Source of the DNA: an uncultured Alphaproteobacteria bacterium
GTDB lineage: Bacteria; Pseudomonadota; Alphaproteobacteria; CAAHEQ01; UBA3637
Direction: 5' to 3'
Length of the DNA: 54,725 bases
NCBI GenBank assembly: GCA_947624545.1
Contig: CANQKV010000001.1
Span: 1-54,725 of the forward strand
Position numbers and translations under genes: made by a program
The notes under the pieces: model-generated
Told to the model about the DNA's origin: nothing
Databases searched by the model: none
What the model saw: only the letters and a program-made list of their open reading frames with translations
Part shown: positions 1-54,725 of the stretch, piece by piece
Numbering within the stretch: position 1 is the first letter of the stretch
How the letters are laid out: each line of letters starts with the position of its first letter

Positions 1-128
1 CCCCACCCGTAAAAGAGCAGCGATGCCAAAAGCAGAAACACATTGCGAAAGCGATTGGGTAATATGTAATAAATTCCGACAACAATCGGCAAAAAATAAC
101 AAAGAAACGTGAATGATGAAAAAATCAT
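1..128 (-). CDS. MBOAT-family membrane O-acyltransferase (AlgI/DltB/PatA-like), N-terminal fragment; the gene continues past the window start
   Basis: The reverse complement of 1-128 translates to MIFSSFTFLCYFLPIVVGIYYILPNRFRNVFLLLASLLFYGW, a typical hydrophobic N-terminus of AlgI/DltB-type MBOAT proteins. Its ATG (128-126) overlaps the TGA of the upstream gene (ATGA). Confidence 0.6.
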   Translation of the reverse strand, partial: MIFSSFTFLCYFLPIVVGIYYILPNRFRNVFLLLASLLFYGW

Positions 129-1339
129 TTAAAAAACCTCATTAATTCCTCCAATTTTTGATCGGAAATGCTTAAAATTAAAATATCAATTTTATTGTTT
201 AACAATTCTTTTTCTTGTTCTTTCCAGCGAATGCCCCACGGAATGCCTGTTCCGCTTTCATTGTATCGGCGCATTCCGATATGTGAAAATGTGGGCATTA
301 AAAACGGAAGCATATAATAAGAAAAGCTGTCACAGATGATATAAGCCCGATGCGGAGAACCCTTTTCATAATCCGAAAACCGAAACTGCTTATCACGGTT
401 AATTTTTAAATTAGCTTTATCTTTGTAAATATAATGCCTGTATTGTGTTTCACCGTAATCAAGCCCTTTTAAATAAGTGCTTCCGTTATAAAAAAACGGT
501 TTTTGCGAATTTTGATAAGGCAACCATACTTCTTTTGTCAGTTCAATATGATAATCATCGGGTGTGACGGCGCGAATGTCTTTAAAATCTTTTTGTATGG
601 CTTCCATTAAAAGTTTGTAGGATTCAAATGCCCCGTCTTCCGACCAATGCGAATCGGTTTTGTAAATTAAAGGAAATTGACTGCGCGCTTGGGAAATAAG
701 GTGTTTTTCAATCGGCACCACGGTTATTATGTTTTTCAGCGCTGTTTCAACCTGTTCCGTAACGGAGGGTTTGTTTTCTCTTAAAATATAATCGGGCATC
801 CATTTGTGATAAATGCGCGATGATTGCGGCGGAATCATAAAATAGACCTTAATGTTGTGTTCTTTGGCAAAATCGGCAATTTTTTGAACGTTTTTTTGAA
901 GCAGGCTGATTTGTTCGGGCGTAAAGAAATAAGTGTTTTGATAAACGGGTAAAGTCGGCAGATTACGGGGAGAATTTTGCCCCATAAACACAAAGTTTTC
1001 TTTACCGATAATGTTATTTTTAGTACCTAAATCACGCCCCAAACCCGATTCGAAATAAAAATCAATTAATTTTGAACGATACGGCAAATGATCGGAAATG
1101 TATTTTTCAAGTTGTTCGCTTTGTGTCCAAAAATGAAAGGGAAAAGTTTCTAAATTGCGCCGTTCACGCAGGCTTTCTTTTTTTTGAGTATCGAGCATAA
1201 GCCCGATAATCAACAAAATACAGAGCGGTAAAAAAATAAACAAACAAAGAAAGAACTTACTTATATATGTACATCTTCGCTGATGAGCTTTTTGATTGGG
1301 TTTTAAAAAGGCGGTAATTTCATACACTCTCCTATGCAT
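125..1339 (-). CDS. AlgX/AlgJ/PatB-like SGNH-type O-acetyltransferase (DHHW-like family), membrane anchored, copy 1
   Basis: The ORF track gives 125-1414. The conserved start MHRR is at 1339 and is preceded by a TTGACA-17-TATGGT promoter. The N-terminus has a TM helix (FFLCLFIFLPLCILLIIGL). The protein carries a TDSHWS (D-x-H-W) motif and a CDSFSYY block, as in AlgJ/AlgX-type enzymes. The gene sits directly upstream of an MBOAT gene. Codons 1414-1340 are a duplicated stub of the MBOAT 5' end. Confidence 0.65.
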   Translation of the reverse strand: MHRRVYEITAFLKPNQKAHQRRCTYISKFFLCLFIFLPLCILLIIGLMLDTQKKESLRERRNLETFPFHFWTQSEQLEKYISDHLPYRSKLIDFYFESGLGRDLGTKNNIIGKENFVFMGQNSPRNLPTLPVYQNTYFFTPEQISLLQKNVQKIADFAKEHNIKVYFMIPPQSSRIYHKWMPDYILRENKPSVTEQVETALKNIITVVPIEKHLISQARSQFPLIYKTDSHWSEDGAFESYKLLMEAIQKDFKDIRAVTPDDYHIELTKEVWLPYQNSQKPFFYNGSTYLKGLDYGETQYRHYIYKDKANLKINRDKQFRFSDYEKGSPHRAYIICDSFSYYMLPFLMPTFSHIGMRRYNESGTGIPWGIRWKEQEKELLNNKIDILILSISDQKLEELMRFFK

Positions 1340-1345
1340 AATATT

Positions 1346-1374
1346 ACCATATGCGTTTCGCAAAAAAATGTCAA
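1346..1374 (-). promoter_or_regulatory. sigma70-type promoter of O-acetyltransferase copy 1 (probably a leaderless mRNA)
   Basis: The minus strand reads TTGACA (1374-1369), a 17-nt spacer, TATGGT (1351-1346), AATATT, then ATG at 1339. There is no Shine-Dalgarno sequence. Confidence 0.5.
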
Positions 1375-1410
1375 TAAAAAAATAACGGGGAAACGTGAAT
1401 GATGAAAAAA

Positions 1411-2478
1411 TCATTTAAAAAACCCCATTAATTCTTCCAATTTTTGATCGGAAATGCTTAAAATTAAAATATCAATTTTATCATTTAACAATTCTTTTTC
1501 CCGTTCTTGCCAGCGAATGCCCCAATTAATGTATTCATTGAATCGATACATTCTGAAATGCGAAAATGTGGGCATTAAAAACGGAAGCATATAATAAGAA
1601 AAGCTGTCACCGATTATATAAACCCGATGCGGAGAGCCTTTTTTATATTCCGAAAAGCGAAACTGCACATCACGATGAATTTTTAAATTGGCTTTATCTT
1701 TGTAAACATAATGTCGATATTTTGTTTTGCCGTAATCAAGCCCGTTTAAATAAGTGCTTCCGTTGTCAATAAAATAAGGTTTTTCCGTAGTTTGATAAGG
1801 TACCCATATTTTTTTTGTCAGCTCAATATGATAATCATCGGGTGTGACGGCACGAATATCTTTAAAATCTTTTTGCATGGCTTTTATTAAAAGCTTATAA
1901 GCTTTAAATGCCCCGTCTTCCGACCAATGCGAATCGGTTTTGTAAATAAGAGGAAATTGACTGTGGGCTTGGGAAATAAGGTGTTTTTCAATCGGCACCA
2001 CGGTTACAATGTTTTGCACTGCCTGTTCAACCTGTTCCGTAACGGAGGGTTTGTTTTCTCTTAAAATATAATCGGGTATCCATTTGTGATAAACGCGCAA
2101 AGTTTCCGGCGGAATTATCAGATAAACTTTAATGTTATGTTCTTTGGCAAAATCGGCAATTTTTTGAACATTTTTTTGAAGCAGGTTAATTTGTTGAGGT
2201 GTAAATGAATAAGAATTTTGATAAACGGATAACGGTTTTATGTATCTATAATCTGAGGAAATATGGAAAACAAAGTTTTCTTTGCCGACAATGCGATCTT
2301 TGGTGCCTAAATCACGCCCCAAACCCGATTCGAAATAAAAATCAATTAATTTTGAACGATACGGCAAATGATCAGAGATGTATTTTTCAAGTTGTTCGCT
2401 TTGTGTCCAAAAATGAAAGGGAAAAGTTTCTAAATTGCGCCGTTCACGCACACTTTGCGTTTGTGTTGTGTCCAGCAT
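1411..2478 (-). CDS. AlgX/AlgJ/PatB-like O-acetyltransferase, copy 2; body of a frameshifted (phase-OFF) gene whose true start is at 2657
   Basis: This is a paralogue of 125-1339 with the same TDSHWS and GDSFSYY motifs. Upstream of the annotated Met, the same frame continues as FLLCLFILFPLCALLTLGL (the TM helix) up to the ATGT repeat. The conserved N-terminus MHRRTNENFTPFFKAEKNARQQR (2657-2589) enters the repeat in a different frame. Confidence 0.7.
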   Translation of the reverse strand: MLDTTQTQSVRERRNLETFPFHFWTQSEQLEKYISDHLPYRSKLIDFYFESGLGRDLGTKDRIVGKENFVFHISSDYRYIKPLSVYQNSYSFTPQQINLLQKNVQKIADFAKEHNIKVYLIIPPETLRVYHKWIPDYILRENKPSVTEQVEQAVQNIVTVVPIEKHLISQAHSQFPLIYKTDSHWSEDGAFKAYKLLIKAMQKDFKDIRAVTPDDYHIELTKKIWVPYQTTEKPYFIDNGSTYLNGLDYGKTKYRHYVYKDKANLKIHRDVQFRFSEYKKGSPHRVYIIGDSFSYYMLPFLMPTFSHFRMYRFNEYINWGIRWQEREKELLNDKIDILILSISDQKLEELMGFFK

Positions 2479-2534
2479 AAGACCAAGAGTTAATAAAGCA
2501 CATAAAGGAAAAAGAATGAATAAGCAAAGAAGGA

Positions 2535-2586
2535 ATGTATGTATGTATGTATGTATGTATGTATGTATGTATGTATGTATGTATGT
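2535..2586. repeat. Tetranucleotide simple-sequence repeat (ATGT)13, which is (ACAT)13 on the coding strand
   Basis: A direct count gives 13 perfect units over 52 nt. The tract lies 70 nt downstream of the ATG at 2657 and inside the 5' coding region of O-acetyltransferase copy 2. Copy 1 carries only a degenerate single unit at the equivalent site. Confidence 0.95.
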
Positions 2587-2664
2587 AGTCTTTGTTGACG
2601 AGCATTTTTTTCGGCTTTAAAAAACGGGGTAAAATTTTCATTTGTTCTCCTATGCATACAATTT

Positions 2665-2692
2665 ACTATATCGGTTCGAAAAAAAATGTCAA
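2665..2692 (-). promoter_or_regulatory. sigma70-type promoter of O-acetyltransferase copy 2 (probably leaderless)
   Basis: The minus strand reads TTGACA (2692-2687), a 16-nt spacer, TATAGT (2670-2665), AAATTGT, then ATG at 2657. Confidence 0.5.
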
Positions 2693-2898
2693 TAAAAAAA
2701 ATAAAAACCGAAAAAATAAAAAAAAAGCACCGCTTTCGCAGTGCTTTTTTATGCAAAGAAACTTATTTCTTTGTTCCACATCCGCAACCCGGCATAACGC
2801 TCCCCCTCCTTTCGCACATATTATCGTATCTCACAAACTCTATGTAAGAATTAAAATAACACTTGTCAAGACGATTTGAATTTGTTATATTAACGTCT

Positions 2899-3654
2899 AT
2901 GAAAAAATTATTTGCTTTTTTATGGTTTCTTTTTTTAACGGCATGTGCCACGCAAAATCCGTTGACGGATTTTCGATTTCAAACACAACCGGCACCGCCG
3001 TACATTTTGGCAAGCTGGTATCGCATTAATGCCCCCGGCGAGCCTGTTCGCATTTATATTGAGGGTGACGGCGCCGCTTTTAATGCCGACGGCACTCCTT
3101 CGGATAATCCTACGCCGCAAGACGCGTTTTGGCGTAACGTTGCCGCCGATGATCCGCATGCTAATACGGCTTATTTGGGGCGTCCCTGCCAATATATGCA
3201 GGCGGGAGCCTGTTCGCAGGTTGATTGGACAACCGGTCGGTTTTCGCCGCAAATTGTGCGCAGTATGAATAGTGCCGTAACGGCGCTGATGAAAAAAGCA
3301 CAAACCGATCAGGCTGTGTTAATCGGCTATTCGGGCGGTGCGCAAATTGCCGGATTGATTGCCGTTCATGATCCGCATGTGGTGAAAGTGATTACCGTTG
3401 CCGGTGTGTTGGATACCGATGCCTGGACGGCTTATCATCATGACACACCCTTAAAAGAATCGCTGAATTTAAAAGATTATCAAATTGAATTTTTAAAAAT
3501 ACCGCAAATTCATTACGTCGGCGAAAAAGATACCGTTGTTCCGCCTGCGCTCACAAAAGCTTTTGTGCAAGAGGCAGCACCGATGGTGATTGTTCGAAAA
3601 GCAACACATAATGACGGGTTTGAGTCTGTTTTGAACGAGTTATATCAACAATAG
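2899..3654 (+). CDS. Lipoprotein, alpha/beta-hydrolase fold
   Basis: MKKLFAFLWFLFLTAC carries a lipobox (LTAC). A GYSGG nucleophile elbow (GxSxG) and a C-terminal HND are present. The ORF track starts at 2863, but the ATG at 2899 gives a proper signal peptide. Confidence 0.6.
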   Translation: MKKLFAFLWFLFLTACATQNPLTDFRFQTQPAPPYILASWYRINAPGEPVRIYIEGDGAAFNADGTPSDNPTPQDAFWRNVAADDPHANTAYLGRPCQYMQAGACSQVDWTTGRFSPQIVRSMNSAVTALMKKAQTDQAVLIGYSGGAQIAGLIAVHDPHVVKVITVAGVLDTDAWTAYHHDTPLKESLNLKDYQIEFLKIPQIHYVGEKDTVVPPALTKAFVQEAAPMVIVRKATHNDGFESVLNELYQQ

Positions 3655-3662
3655 GATAACAA

Positions 3663-4631
3663 ATGCTTGTGTGGATTTTGGCAGATGATCGCGCCGGAAA
3701 CGTTAATCAGTTGTTGGGCATTGCCGAAGCATTAGGTCATTCTTTCGAACGCAAAAACATTGCTTATACAAAAGCCGTAAAACTGCCGAATTTTTTGCGT
3801 GACGGAACGTTAATCGGGTTAACGAAAGAATCAAAAAAAGCAGTGCAAACAACCGTTTATCCCGATGTGGTGCTTAGTGCCGGTCGGCGCGCCTTTCCCG
3901 TAGCGAGATACATACAAAAAAAATCAAAAGGCAAAACAAAAATCGTGCAATTAATGAATCCGGGTATCAGAGGATTTAAAAGCGCCGATTTAATTGTGTT
4001 GCCCGCGCATGATTTATATAAAGGTAAAGCTGAAAATGTGATGATTGTTGACGGCTCACCGCATCGCGTGACGGAAAAACGCTTAAAGGAAGAACGCCAA
4101 AAATGGCTGCCCGTTTTTGCCGATTATCCCGCACCGCGTTTATCGTTAATTATCGGCGGTGCTACCAAAAACAAGCCTTTTACCGTTGCCGATGCCGAAA
4201 AAATTGTTGCGGCGGTGCGACAATTACACCCGGCTTCCGTTTTAATTACGACATCAAGGCGAACGCCTGCCGATGTGGTCGCGTTTCTCAAAACGGCATT
4301 TCCGCCGAAAACAACATTTTTTTATGCTTTCGGTGATAAGAGCGAAAATCCGTATTTCGGATTACTTGCCTGTGCCGATTTAATTGTGGTAACGGGCGAT
4401 TCGATGTCTATGTGTTCGGAATGTTGCGCCGGAAAGGTTCCCGTTTTTATTTTTGCGCCCGATGAAATGATGAGCGTGAAACATCGCCGTTTTCATCAGA
4501 CTCTTTTTCAAAACGGCTATGCGTTACCCCTCGGCAGCGCTTTAAAACCCGTTAAAGGCGGATTTAATCCCTCTCTTTCGATTGCCGAACGAATTTTAAG
4601 TCTTTTGAATGCGTCTGATATAAAAAAATAA
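3663..4631 (+). CDS. ELM1/DUF1022-family protein (predicted glycosyltransferase-like)
   Basis: The N-terminus WILADDRAGNVNQLLGIAEALG and the TGDSMSMCSE block are typical of the family annotated 'mitochondrial fission ELM1' in alphaproteobacteria. Confidence 0.6.
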   Translation: MLVWILADDRAGNVNQLLGIAEALGHSFERKNIAYTKAVKLPNFLRDGTLIGLTKESKKAVQTTVYPDVVLSAGRRAFPVARYIQKKSKGKTKIVQLMNPGIRGFKSADLIVLPAHDLYKGKAENVMIVDGSPHRVTEKRLKEERQKWLPVFADYPAPRLSLIIGGATKNKPFTVADAEKIVAAVRQLHPASVLITTSRRTPADVVAFLKTAFPPKTTFFYAFGDKSENPYFGLLACADLIVVTGDSMSMCSECCAGKVPVFIFAPDEMMSVKHRRFHQTLFQNGYALPLGSALKPVKGGFNPSLSIAERILSLLNASDIKK

Positions 4632-52702: not shown

Positions 52703-52930
52703 GAGAGAGAGGAAAAAGCAGAAAGAAAGAGAGAGAGAAAAAAGAAAAGGAGGAAAAAAGAGGGGGAGGAAAAGAGGGGAGAGGGGAGAGGGGAGAGGGG
52801 AGAGGAGAGAGGAGAGAGAAAAGAGACGAAAGAGGGGAAAGAAAGAGAAGAAAAAAGAGAGGGGGAAAAATTGGGGTGGGAGATAGGAGGGGAAGAGAGA
52901 CGAAAAAGAGGGAGGGGATAAAAAAAGGAA
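52703..52930. repeat. Polypurine (G+A) / polypyrimidine tract A
   Basis: By direct count, 228 nt on the + strand contain only 8 pyrimidines. The tract contains (GAGGGGA)n-type micro-repeats. Confidence 0.95.
52776..52800 (+). other. Canonical G-quadruplex-forming motif GGGG-AGA-GGGG-AGA-GGGG-AGA-GGGG
   Basis: Four G4 runs (52776-79, 52783-86, 52790-93, 52797-800) are separated by 3-nt AGA loops. An extra GGGGG run lies at 52762-52766. Confidence 0.8.
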
Positions 52931-53110
52931 CCCGCTCGGGAGAGCGAAGCCTTTTACTAACTTTAAGAAAAGGGAAAATCCGCTTGTTGTTAAAGAAAAG
53001 AGCAGATTTTTGAGCGGGCTGGTAAGAAAAGAGAATGAGGATTATTTTTTATTCATAAAAGCGGAAAAATGTAGAAAGTGGAAAGTGCATAAGGGGTTAA
53101 CGGCATGCAA

Positions 53111-53243
53111 GGGAAGCCTGACAGTGGGCAAGGAAAACGGCGATTGTTAAAGAAACAGGGTTTTTTGAGCGGGAGGGTAAGGAAAGAGAGGATAAAAATA
53201 GAAAACATTGACAAAAAAAGATAAAAAAACGAGTTGAATTGAG
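53111..53243. repeat. 133-bp conserved element, copy B
   Basis: Direct repeat of 52521-52653, 590 bp downstream of copy A. Confidence 0.9.
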
Positions 53244-53347
53244 AGAGAGAAAAGAAAAGGACGAAAAGAGAGAGGAAAAAAGGGGTGGGAGATAGGAGGA
53301 AAGAGGGGAGGGAAAAGAAAGAGGAAAGGGAGGGGATAAAAAAGGAA
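53241..53347. repeat. Polypurine / polypyrimidine tract B
   Basis: 107 nt with 4 pyrimidines. It ends in the same GGGGTGGGAGATAGGAGG...GGGAGGGGATAAAAAAGGAA block as tract A. Confidence 0.95.
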
Positions 53348-54003: not shown

Positions 54004-54725
54004 TTAAATTGTCTCAACACAACATGTTTCCTCTTGCGGTGGCGGCGGCGGTGTAACGGAGGGTGTTACAGGCGGCGTTACAGGTGTTGGCGGTGGTGTA
54101 CAATCGCAACAGCAGTTTTTTATATCCGCTTCATAAACACAACCAGGGTGGCTTTCACAACATGTTTTTGCCTTATCGTCAGGACAACTATTGATTTCAT
54201 TGTTGTAGACCTTGTCGCAATCGCAAACGGGCGTCGTTGGCGGCGTTGTTGTGGGCGTCGGCGTTGGCGTCGGTGGCGGCGTTGTTGTGGTCGGCGTCGT
54301 TACGGGCGTTGGCGTCGGTGGCGGCGTTGTTGTCGACGGCGTCGTATCAGGAGGCGTAACAATAGGTGTTTGACCACCACACGGATGTCCATTACCACCG
54401 CAACAGATTGAACCGTCCCAAGTACCGCCATACTGCTCACAACACCGTTTGGCAGCATCATTACTGCAATGATGTTGTCCGCCGTTATGATACACAGCTG
54501 AACAATCACATGTTGTTGTCGGCGGTGTCGTCGTTGTCGGTGGCGGCGTTGTTGTCGACGGTGGCGTCGTTTCGGTCGGCGTCGGTGTCGGTGTTGGCGT
54601 CGTATCAGTCGGCGGCGGCGTTGTTGTGGTCGGCGTCGTTATGGGCGTCGGCGTTGGCGTCGGCGTCGTATCAGTCGGCGGCGGCGTCGTTGTGGTCGGC
54701 GTCGTTGTGGGCGTCGGTGTTGGCG
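54004..54725 (-). CDS. Thr/Pro-rich, Cys-module repeat protein (mucin-like), C-terminal part; the ORF is open to the window end
   Basis: The frame stays open upstream of the ORF-track start at 54495 (a GTG): ...TPPTTTCDCSAVYHNGGQHHC... Two Cys-rich modules (CDC..VY.N...C....K.CCE...) are separated by long (T/P)n linkers. Tandem 66-bp repeats lie at 54601-54725. Confidence 0.7.
   Translation of the reverse strand, partial: PTPTPTTTPTTTTPPPTDTTPTPTPTPITTPTTTTPPPTDTTPTPTPTPTETTPPSTTTPPPTTTTPPTTTCDCSAVYHNGGQHHCSNDAAKRCCEQYGGTWDGSICCGGNGHPCGGQTPIVTPPDTTPSTTTPPPTPTPVTTPTTTTPPPTPTPTPTTTPPTTPVCDCDKVYNNEINSCPDDKAKTCCESHPGCVYEADIKNCCCDCTPPPTPVTPPVTPSVTPPPPPQEETCCVETI

Follow-up and report, generated by a model that had tools for sequence, protein, structure and literature searches.

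Knowledge of contingency loci stems largely from a small set of cultured mucosal pathogens, among them Haemophilus, Neisseria, Campylobacter and Helicobacter. OafA, WciZ and IcaC, the surface-glycan O-acylation enzymes that bear on the present case, are integral-membrane acyltransferases. In the lic1 locus of Haemophilus influenzae, the (CAAT)n repeat of licA is combined with initiation codons in two of the three reading frames (PMC2212159). Tetranucleotide switching has also been reported for H. influenzae oafA (PMC10505976), whose product is treated in a review of the acyltransferase-3 proteins (PMC9558356), and slipped-strand mispairing for icaC of Staphylococcus aureus and wciZ of Streptococcus pneumoniae (15B/15C) (PMC4432689). 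The locus discussed here is a tract of 13 ACAT units in the 5′ region of an AlgX/AlgJ-like O-acetyltransferase gene, called copy 2, which is the upstream one of two tandem paralogues in an uncultured alphaproteobacterium (assembly GCA_947624545.1, contig CANQKV010000001.1, positions 1 to 54,725). This whole stretch of 54,725 nucleotides (nt) is referred to as the window, and coordinates given in descending order lie on its minus strand.

The protein family is known from pathways that include a membrane-bound O-acyltransferase (MBOAT), such as PatA1/PatB1 of Bacillus cereus, AlgI/AlgJ/AlgX of Pseudomonas and WssH/WssI of P. fluorescens. The permuted order of the catalytic residues, Asp-x-His...Ser, has been described for AlgJ, AlgX, PatB1 and WssI (Asp205/His207/Ser304 in WssI), and the enzymes of the AlgJ/WssI type are N-terminally anchored type II membrane proteins that are active outside the cytoplasm (PMC10302187). 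Like these proteins, the one encoded in the window matches PF16822 and has the permuted residues and an N-terminal anchor. As in other pairs of an MBOAT with an AlgX-family protein, an AlgX-like gene adjoins the MBOAT gene, to which it appears to be translationally coupled, and the closest structure is that of PatB1. The identity of copy 2 to PatB1 or AlgJ is, however, only 15-16%.

With a probability that we put at roughly 85%, the tract acts as a hypermutable translational frame switch for the upstream one of two tandem genes for AlgX/AlgJ/PatB1-type periplasmic O-acetyltransferases. Slipped-strand mispairing during replication would lengthen or shorten the tract, which lies downstream of the start codons and upstream of the membrane anchor, in steps of 4 nt. 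When the number of units n equals 2 mod 3, the enzyme would be made from the ATG at 2657 (ATG1); when n equals 0 mod 3, it would be made from the ATG at 2641 (ATG2), which is led by a Shine-Dalgarno sequence; and when n equals 1 mod 3, the gene would be OFF, so that at 13 units only peptides of 55 or 65 amino acids (aa) would be produced and the anchored enzyme would be absent. In the ON state, acetyl groups that the MBOAT encoded downstream has passed across the membrane would be transferred by the enzyme to an extracytoplasmic glycan. This relay, the identity of the glycan and the agent of selection, which may be phage or host immunity, are all putative. The tract-less paralogue, copy 1, would stay constitutively ON, and the switch in this genome would therefore probably alter the pattern or the extent of O-acetylation and not abolish it. 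In a related lineage with a single-copy gene (lineage A, below), the OFF allele of the assembly L024 would remove the sole partner of the MBOAT, whose own translation would probably be reduced as well through the lost ATGA coupling.

Like licA, the locus has a tetranucleotide tract in the 5′ coding region, with two length classes ON and one OFF, and the likeness to the lic repeats of Haemophilus drawn in a preliminary description of this DNA extends to the placing of starts in two of the three frames. It differs from licA in its unit, which is ACAT and not CAAT, in gating what is predicted to be a periplasmic O-acetyltransferase and not a choline kinase, and in its host, which is an uncultured gut alphaproteobacterium. 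As in oafA, wciZ and icaC, slipped-strand mispairing within the gene would switch an enzyme of surface-glycan O-acylation, whereas the product of the gene switched here is of the AlgX/PatB1 type, a soluble-domain partner to a separate MBOAT, and a tract-less paralogue is adjacent. No new mechanism or principle is revealed; the mechanism is classical, and it is the enzyme family and the host group that are new for such a switch. One literature library, which is not proof of absence, yielded no report of phase variation for the MBOAT/AlgX-type pathway, nor any relevant case of phase variation by simple-sequence repeats in Alphaproteobacteria or metagenomes. Contingency control would extend to the pathway of MBOAT plus AlgX/PatB1-type acetylation, and stochastic switching of surface-glycan O-acetylation to commensals of the herbivore gut.

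The tract and the reading frames of copy 2

The perfect (ACAT)13 tract occupies 2586..2535, between the start codons and the membrane anchor. An exact pattern count and Tandem Repeats Finder (2535-2587, period 4, 13.2 copies, 100% matches, no indels) agree with the 13 units counted at the outset. Shuffling the window 200 times gave tetranucleotide runs whose maximum was 2-4 copies, which places 13 far beyond chance, and the 54.7-kb window holds no other simple-sequence repeat of at least 14 nt except a four-copy heptamer at 52773. The repeat encodes a peptide of the (T-Y-I-H)n type and is free of stops in all frames.

Upstream of the tract, a consensus scan recovered the promoter-like TTGACA-16-TATAGT that had been proposed for copy 2, at 2692..2665 and with 11 of 12 matches. 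Its function is putative; its hexamers and their distance to ATG1 are kept in the lineages here called W, A, B, C and E, and also ahead of the downstream copy of lineage D. ATG1 (2657..2655, MHRR..., frame 0) opens MHRRTNENFTPFFKAEKNARQQR, has no Shine-Dalgarno sequence, and lies 71 nt ahead of the tract. In every lineage just 7 nt separate it from the -10 hexamer, and if this start is used, the copy 2 mRNA would therefore probably be leaderless, or nearly so. ATG2 (2641..2639, MKILPRFLKPKKM..., frame +1) follows an AGGAG Shine-Dalgarno sequence (2651..2647) after a 5-nt spacer. The alternative N-terminal tails that begin at ATG1 and ATG2 are both basic, with 6 K+R each, as expected of the cytoplasmic side of a signal anchor. 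Such an anchor, the hydrophobic 19-residue segment FLLCLFILFPLCALLTLGL (2535..2479), comes directly after the tract in the frame of the enzyme body, and homologues with complete N-termini also have a hydrophobic segment at this position.

ATG1, ATG2 and the body sit in three different frames, and at 13 units neither start is in frame. ATG1 then leads to 55 aa, ending at the TAA at 2492-2490, and ATG2 to 65 aa, ending at a stop at 2446..2444. The distance that had been calculated from ATG 2657 to the body frame, 122 nt or 2 mod 3, is correct, as are the remaining coordinates and arithmetic given there, among them those of the frame that ends at this TAA. Upstream of the tract, the third frame is interrupted by three stops, the last of which is not followed by any ATG, GTG or TTG, and no start codon lies in the body frame when n equals 1 mod 3, 13 included. 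The gene had been called "currently OFF", and this holds in that no start is in frame at 13 units; the count is, however, the assembly consensus of one sample and not a fixed state.

Simulated tracts of 8, 11, 14 and 17 units joined ATG1 to the body and gave proteins of 408-420 aa, and in relatives with n = 2, 5 and 11 the ATG1 frame is open, as it should be for n = 2 mod 3 (e.g., 11, 14 and 17). The simulations bear out the original suggestion that 14 or 11 units would restore the gene; that suggestion had missed ATG 2641, with which 12 units restore it as well. Because the second frame has this start with its AGGAG, the gene would also be ON at 12, 9 and 6 units; by frame arithmetic, ATG2 is in frame with the body whenever n equals 0 mod 3 (e.g., 6, 9, 12 and 15), and natural alleles exist at n = 3 and 6. 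Two starts in two frames thus leave one length class in three OFF. Furthermore, genes with at most 2 repeat units are found in each frame, ATG1 in the assemblies L007 and L009 and ATG2 in the downstream copy of L002. Since low-repeat or tract-less lineages hold the gene in one or the other of these frames, both starts appear to be usable, although the use of each and any difference in strength between them are putative.

A different account of these frames has translation begin at Met 2478, which would give a 355-aa open reading frame (ORF), or lets the tract merely tune the length of a cytoplasmic (HTYI)n tail, with no switching in either case. The 355-aa ORF is indeed on record in a public protein collection, and the tail does vary in length with the tract among ON alleles, whose products measure 397-425 aa. 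But no Shine-Dalgarno sequence precedes Met 2478, its product would lack the hydrophobic anchor found in homologues whose N-termini are complete, enzymes of the AlgJ/WssI type are anchored at the N-terminus and act outside the cytoplasm (PMC10302187), and the length changes between alleles are not limited to multiples of three units. Having neither anchor nor ribosome-binding site, the Met 2478 product is unlikely to be functional, and we give this account hardly any credence. If the tract is a frame switch, the public record holds a warning for annotation, as the 355-aa ORF would then represent a shortened version of a switchable gene whose full product has about 400-416 aa.

Repeat number among related assemblies

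DNA around homologues and around a neighbouring gene was fetched from other samples and compared. The closest relatives are uncultured Alphaproteobacteria represented by the metagenome-assembled genomes (MAGs) Lapin-005, -024 and -032; others, known as MAGs from the guts of roe deer and yak, are more distant. Look-up of the neighbouring FSH1-like protein led to a second sample of the window's species (L022, ERZ27249148), while exact-protein look-ups of the 355-aa ORF (P0001) and of a 429-aa ORF of copy 1 gave no record, and a scan of JGI metagenome contigs for the pattern ACATACATACATTCCTTCTTTGCTT gave no match. Comparison of the locus in related genomes, which had been proposed as a check, showed that the repeat number varies: 13 versus 6 in the window's species (lineage W), 3, 6, 7 and 11 in lineage A, and 9 versus 3 in lineage D.

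In lineage W, with the window (13 units, OFF) as the reference, L022 has 6 units and is ON via ATG2 (400 aa), and the 2570 bp aligned between the two (window 1197-3766) contain 6 mismatches besides a single gap of 28 nt. Lineage A, which has a single-copy gene, is represented by five assemblies from different samples, and each comparison spans 7.1-9.2 kb of shared sequence. Relative to the reference L001 (6 units, ON via ATG2), L026 (3 units, ON via ATG2), L024 (7 units, OFF) and L008 (11 units, ON via ATG1, 413 aa) each show 0 mismatches and one gap, and three of the four perfect-tract alleles are ON. The fifth assembly, L025 (ERZ27249395), has a degenerate tract of 96 nt at 3056..3151 with the ATG2 frame open; its flanks nearly match those of the other contigs of this lineage, with 4 mismatches, and its alignment pieces run into the tract. 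In lineage B, the reference L009 (2 units) and L027 (5 units, 97.4% identical to L009) are both ON via ATG1. Lineage D has two copies, and its upstream copy is OFF both in the reference L002 (9 units) and in L004 (3 units). Over 7657 bp these two show a single gap of 24 nt and no mismatch; both alleles are OFF because all upstream ATGs there share one frame.

In several separate comparisons the tract is thus the sole or near-sole difference between samples, and its changes are not multiples of three units, which argues for a hypermutable contingency repeat. Together with the shifting frames and the purifying selection on the body (below), this supports the proposal of a slipped-strand contingency locus that gates one of two AlgX-like paralogues sharing one MBOAT. 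The evidence comes wholly from public metagenome assemblies, in which one strain background carries differing repeat numbers across samples.

Several points speak against a working switch. All repeat counts are consensus values of short-read metagenome assemblies, one per sample, which bears in particular on the high-frequency, reversible switching that would be expected within one population, and the coverage of the L022 contig is only about 2x. The L025 tract keeps the exact register of (ACAT)24 and departs from it by 19 substitutions; it may represent a long tract that was misassembled, or else an allele with interruptions that is locked ON. Both alleles of lineage D and that of the window are OFF for the tract-bearing copy, and therefore the upstream copy could be dispensable where a second copy exists. 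The use of ATG 2657 would require leaderless or Shine-Dalgarno-less initiation. Finally, the neighbours of the locus (an FSH1-like lipoprotein hydrolase, an ELM1-family protein and BacA) do not point to a glycan substrate.

The first of these points might be taken further, by regarding the repeat counts as assembly artefacts and the OFF state and the differences between samples as unreal. All the data are of the short-read kind, the L025 tract resembles a poorly resolved long tract, and the contigs L003 and L006 begin about 25 nt after a tract. Yet the tracts measure 12-53 nt, which is below both the usual read length and a k-mer length (k) of 55, lineage A gives four distinct perfect counts on contigs of about 9x coverage that are identical elsewhere, and an artefact is not expected to be the sole difference every time. 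We therefore hold such an origin to be very improbable. A specific version, in which the 13 units reflect a collapse in the de Bruijn graph at k = 55, was rejected by reasoning only, as the periodic run is 53 nt and the reasoned floor of such a collapse is 14 units.

No repeat of at least 14 nt was present on the gene strand of the loci fetched for the distant homologues L011-L015 (from roe deer, yak and other gut MAGs), and the tract appears to be confined to the clade formed by the window and the Lapin MAGs. A different fate of the gene is seen in a further related lineage, in two Logan contigs (SRR29273038/9), L020 (6001..6891) and L021 (619..1509), which have a single AlgX-like gene with 2 ACAT units in the ATG1 frame. 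A premature stop in the middle of this gene leaves a product of 296 aa, and a separate 70-aa ORF precedes the MBOAT gene; the truncation looks like a non-reversible inactivation.

The copy 2 enzyme, its paralogue and the MBOAT gene

The body of copy 2 is the 355-aa ORF at 2478..1411, which has an AlgX/AlgJ/PatB1-type, SGNH-like domain, and its frame is open from 2616 to 1411, for 401 codons. Against the Pfam model PF16822 (ALGX), copy 2 scores 42.5 bits and copy 1 44.6 bits, with a cutoff of 26.5, while no NCBIfam family matched the AlgX-like protein. A family profile searched against the PDB found B. cereus PatB1 at an expectation value (E) of 3e-16 and AlgJ weakly. The AlphaFold2 model of copy 2 (mean per-residue confidence pLDDT 87, predicted template modelling score pTM 0.81) gave the same answer, as the top 11 Foldseek matches in the PDB, which range in E from 4e-15 (PatB1) to 2.5e-7, comprise nothing but PatB1, AlgJ, AlgX and a DHHW-family protein, and there are no other significant neighbours. 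Gram-negative PatB was not among the relatives returned by the sequence and fold searches, though its structure may be missing from the library, and peptidoglycan, which the Gram-negative PatA/PatB system acetylates, is a candidate target. The family is rare, with 14 clusters at E <= 1e-50 among 5.8 billion proteins.

The predicted catalytic residues of copy 2 are Asp182 (1935..1933), His184 (1929..1927) and Ser292 (1605..1603), in the numbering of the 355-aa body. They lie in the motifs KTD182-S-H184-W and GD-S292, whose columns are invariant or nearly so and align with KTDHHW and KDSF of PatB1. The PF16822 match, the profile and fold matches to PatB1 and the permuted Asp-x-His...Ser order identify the product, at the level of prediction, as the extracytoplasmic acetyl-transfer partner of the MBOAT.

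Because a second copy exists, copy 2 would seem open to another explanation, namely that it is a redundant duplicate decaying to a pseudogene, with a permanent frameshift at 13 units and a tract that is a neutral microsatellite. Copy 1 is intact and has its own promoter, and in the two-copy lineages the tract-bearing upstream copy is OFF in three of the four alleles (the window, L002 and L004). The body frame of copy 2, however, is open throughout its 401 codons and keeps its catalytic residues, and the ratio of nonsynonymous to synonymous substitution rates (dN/dS) against orthologues and paralogues is 0.21-0.33, which indicates purifying selection. The tract itself is uninterrupted, an in-frame allele of 6 units occurs in the same species (L022), and lineage A, with its single copy, has the same switch with most of its perfect-tract alleles ON. 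The dN/dS values and the in-frame allele of the same species lead us to reject decay, which we consider improbable, in favour of the frame switch.

Copy 1 (1339..125) is an intact paralogue of 404 aa in the ATG1 frame, 80% identical to the body of copy 2, and has no repeat tract; as the preliminary description stated, only a degenerate single unit, within TACATATATAAG, stands at the tract position. A consensus scan places a promoter-like TTGACA-17-TATGGT at 1374..1346. The ATG of the MBOAT gene (AlgI/DltB/PatA-like, 128..1) overlaps the copy 1 stop as ATGA, and the gene then runs off the window. In syntenic loci this gene is complete and encodes a 469-aa PF03062 protein. An identity as DltB was considered for the MBOAT, but the score with the DltB model (145 bits) is under that model's cutoff, and the gene was not called DltB.

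The start of the MBOAT gene, 8 codons long, recurs as a relic after copy 2 (MIFSSFTF, 1414..1391), with its ATG likewise overlapping the copy 2 stop as ATGA, and marks, on the sequence, the junction of a tandem duplication. The junction shows the microhomology GTTATTTTTT. The relic is in frame with copy 1, and the two together form a 429-aa ORF (1414..125), which is the form kept in public protein collections. Lineage D has a different junction without an MBOAT relic, which suggests either independent duplications or a later deletion.

The divergence between the two copies is patchy, with 100% identity at 2438-2379, 47-55% at 2288-2199 and 65% at 1568-1518. In L019 (ERZ27249360), another sample of the window's species, copy 1 carries a copy-2-like patch (KVYLIIPPETLRVYHKW), and in L005 (ERZ27249451), of lineage D, the body of the upstream copy is fused to a tract-less 5′ region and a partial extra copy is present. 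Such a mosaic suggests gene conversion and two diversified patches, along with changes in copy number at the locus, and it is a reasonable idea that copies 1 and 2 differ in acceptor specificity. A more far-reaching scheme, which we offer as tentative and would not expect to hold in full, is a combinatorial serotype switch in which a constitutive and a stochastic paralogue, with two hypervariable patches and one shared MBOAT, would set different O-acetyl patterns on a surface polysaccharide. A three-state tract (strong, weak and off), recurrent tandem duplication and gene conversion would then together generate diversity under pressure from phage or immunoglobulin A. If true, both the MBOAT/AlgX-type pathway and this bacterial group would have their first described contingency locus.

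Neighbouring genes and other elements

Two genes on the plus strand diverge from the acetyltransferase genes. The first (2863..3654) encodes an FSH1-type, lipoprotein-like alpha/beta hydrolase with the possible lipobox LFLTAC, and the second (3663..4631) an ELM1-family protein (PF06258). This arrangement recurs in the syntenic loci examined for lineages A, B, D and E. It is conceivable that they act in the same glycan pathway, for example with the hydrolase as an O-acetyl esterase.

Just upstream of the copy 2 promoter lies a module of about 140 nt (2855..2716), which is almost invariant in five lineages although the flanking genes are just 83-89% identical. It contains a promoter-like TTGACA-17-TACATA site, a strong ribosome-binding site (AAGGAGGGGGAG), a 10-codon ORF (2795..2763, MPGCGCGTKK) and a terminator with a 13-bp stem (2750..2721). 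The module had only sub-threshold matches in Rfam, which at gathering score reports two tRNAs and nothing else in the whole window. Possible identities for it are a small RNA, a micro-protein gene and an attenuator with a leader peptide.

Near the right end of the window, a purine-rich region of AG repeats with units of 7-31 nt spans 52705..53344. In the last part, 54230..54725, there are repeats rich in GC, with lengths of 18, 45 and 66 nt (GGCGTCGTTG...-like), which contrast with the GC content of 41% of the window as a whole.

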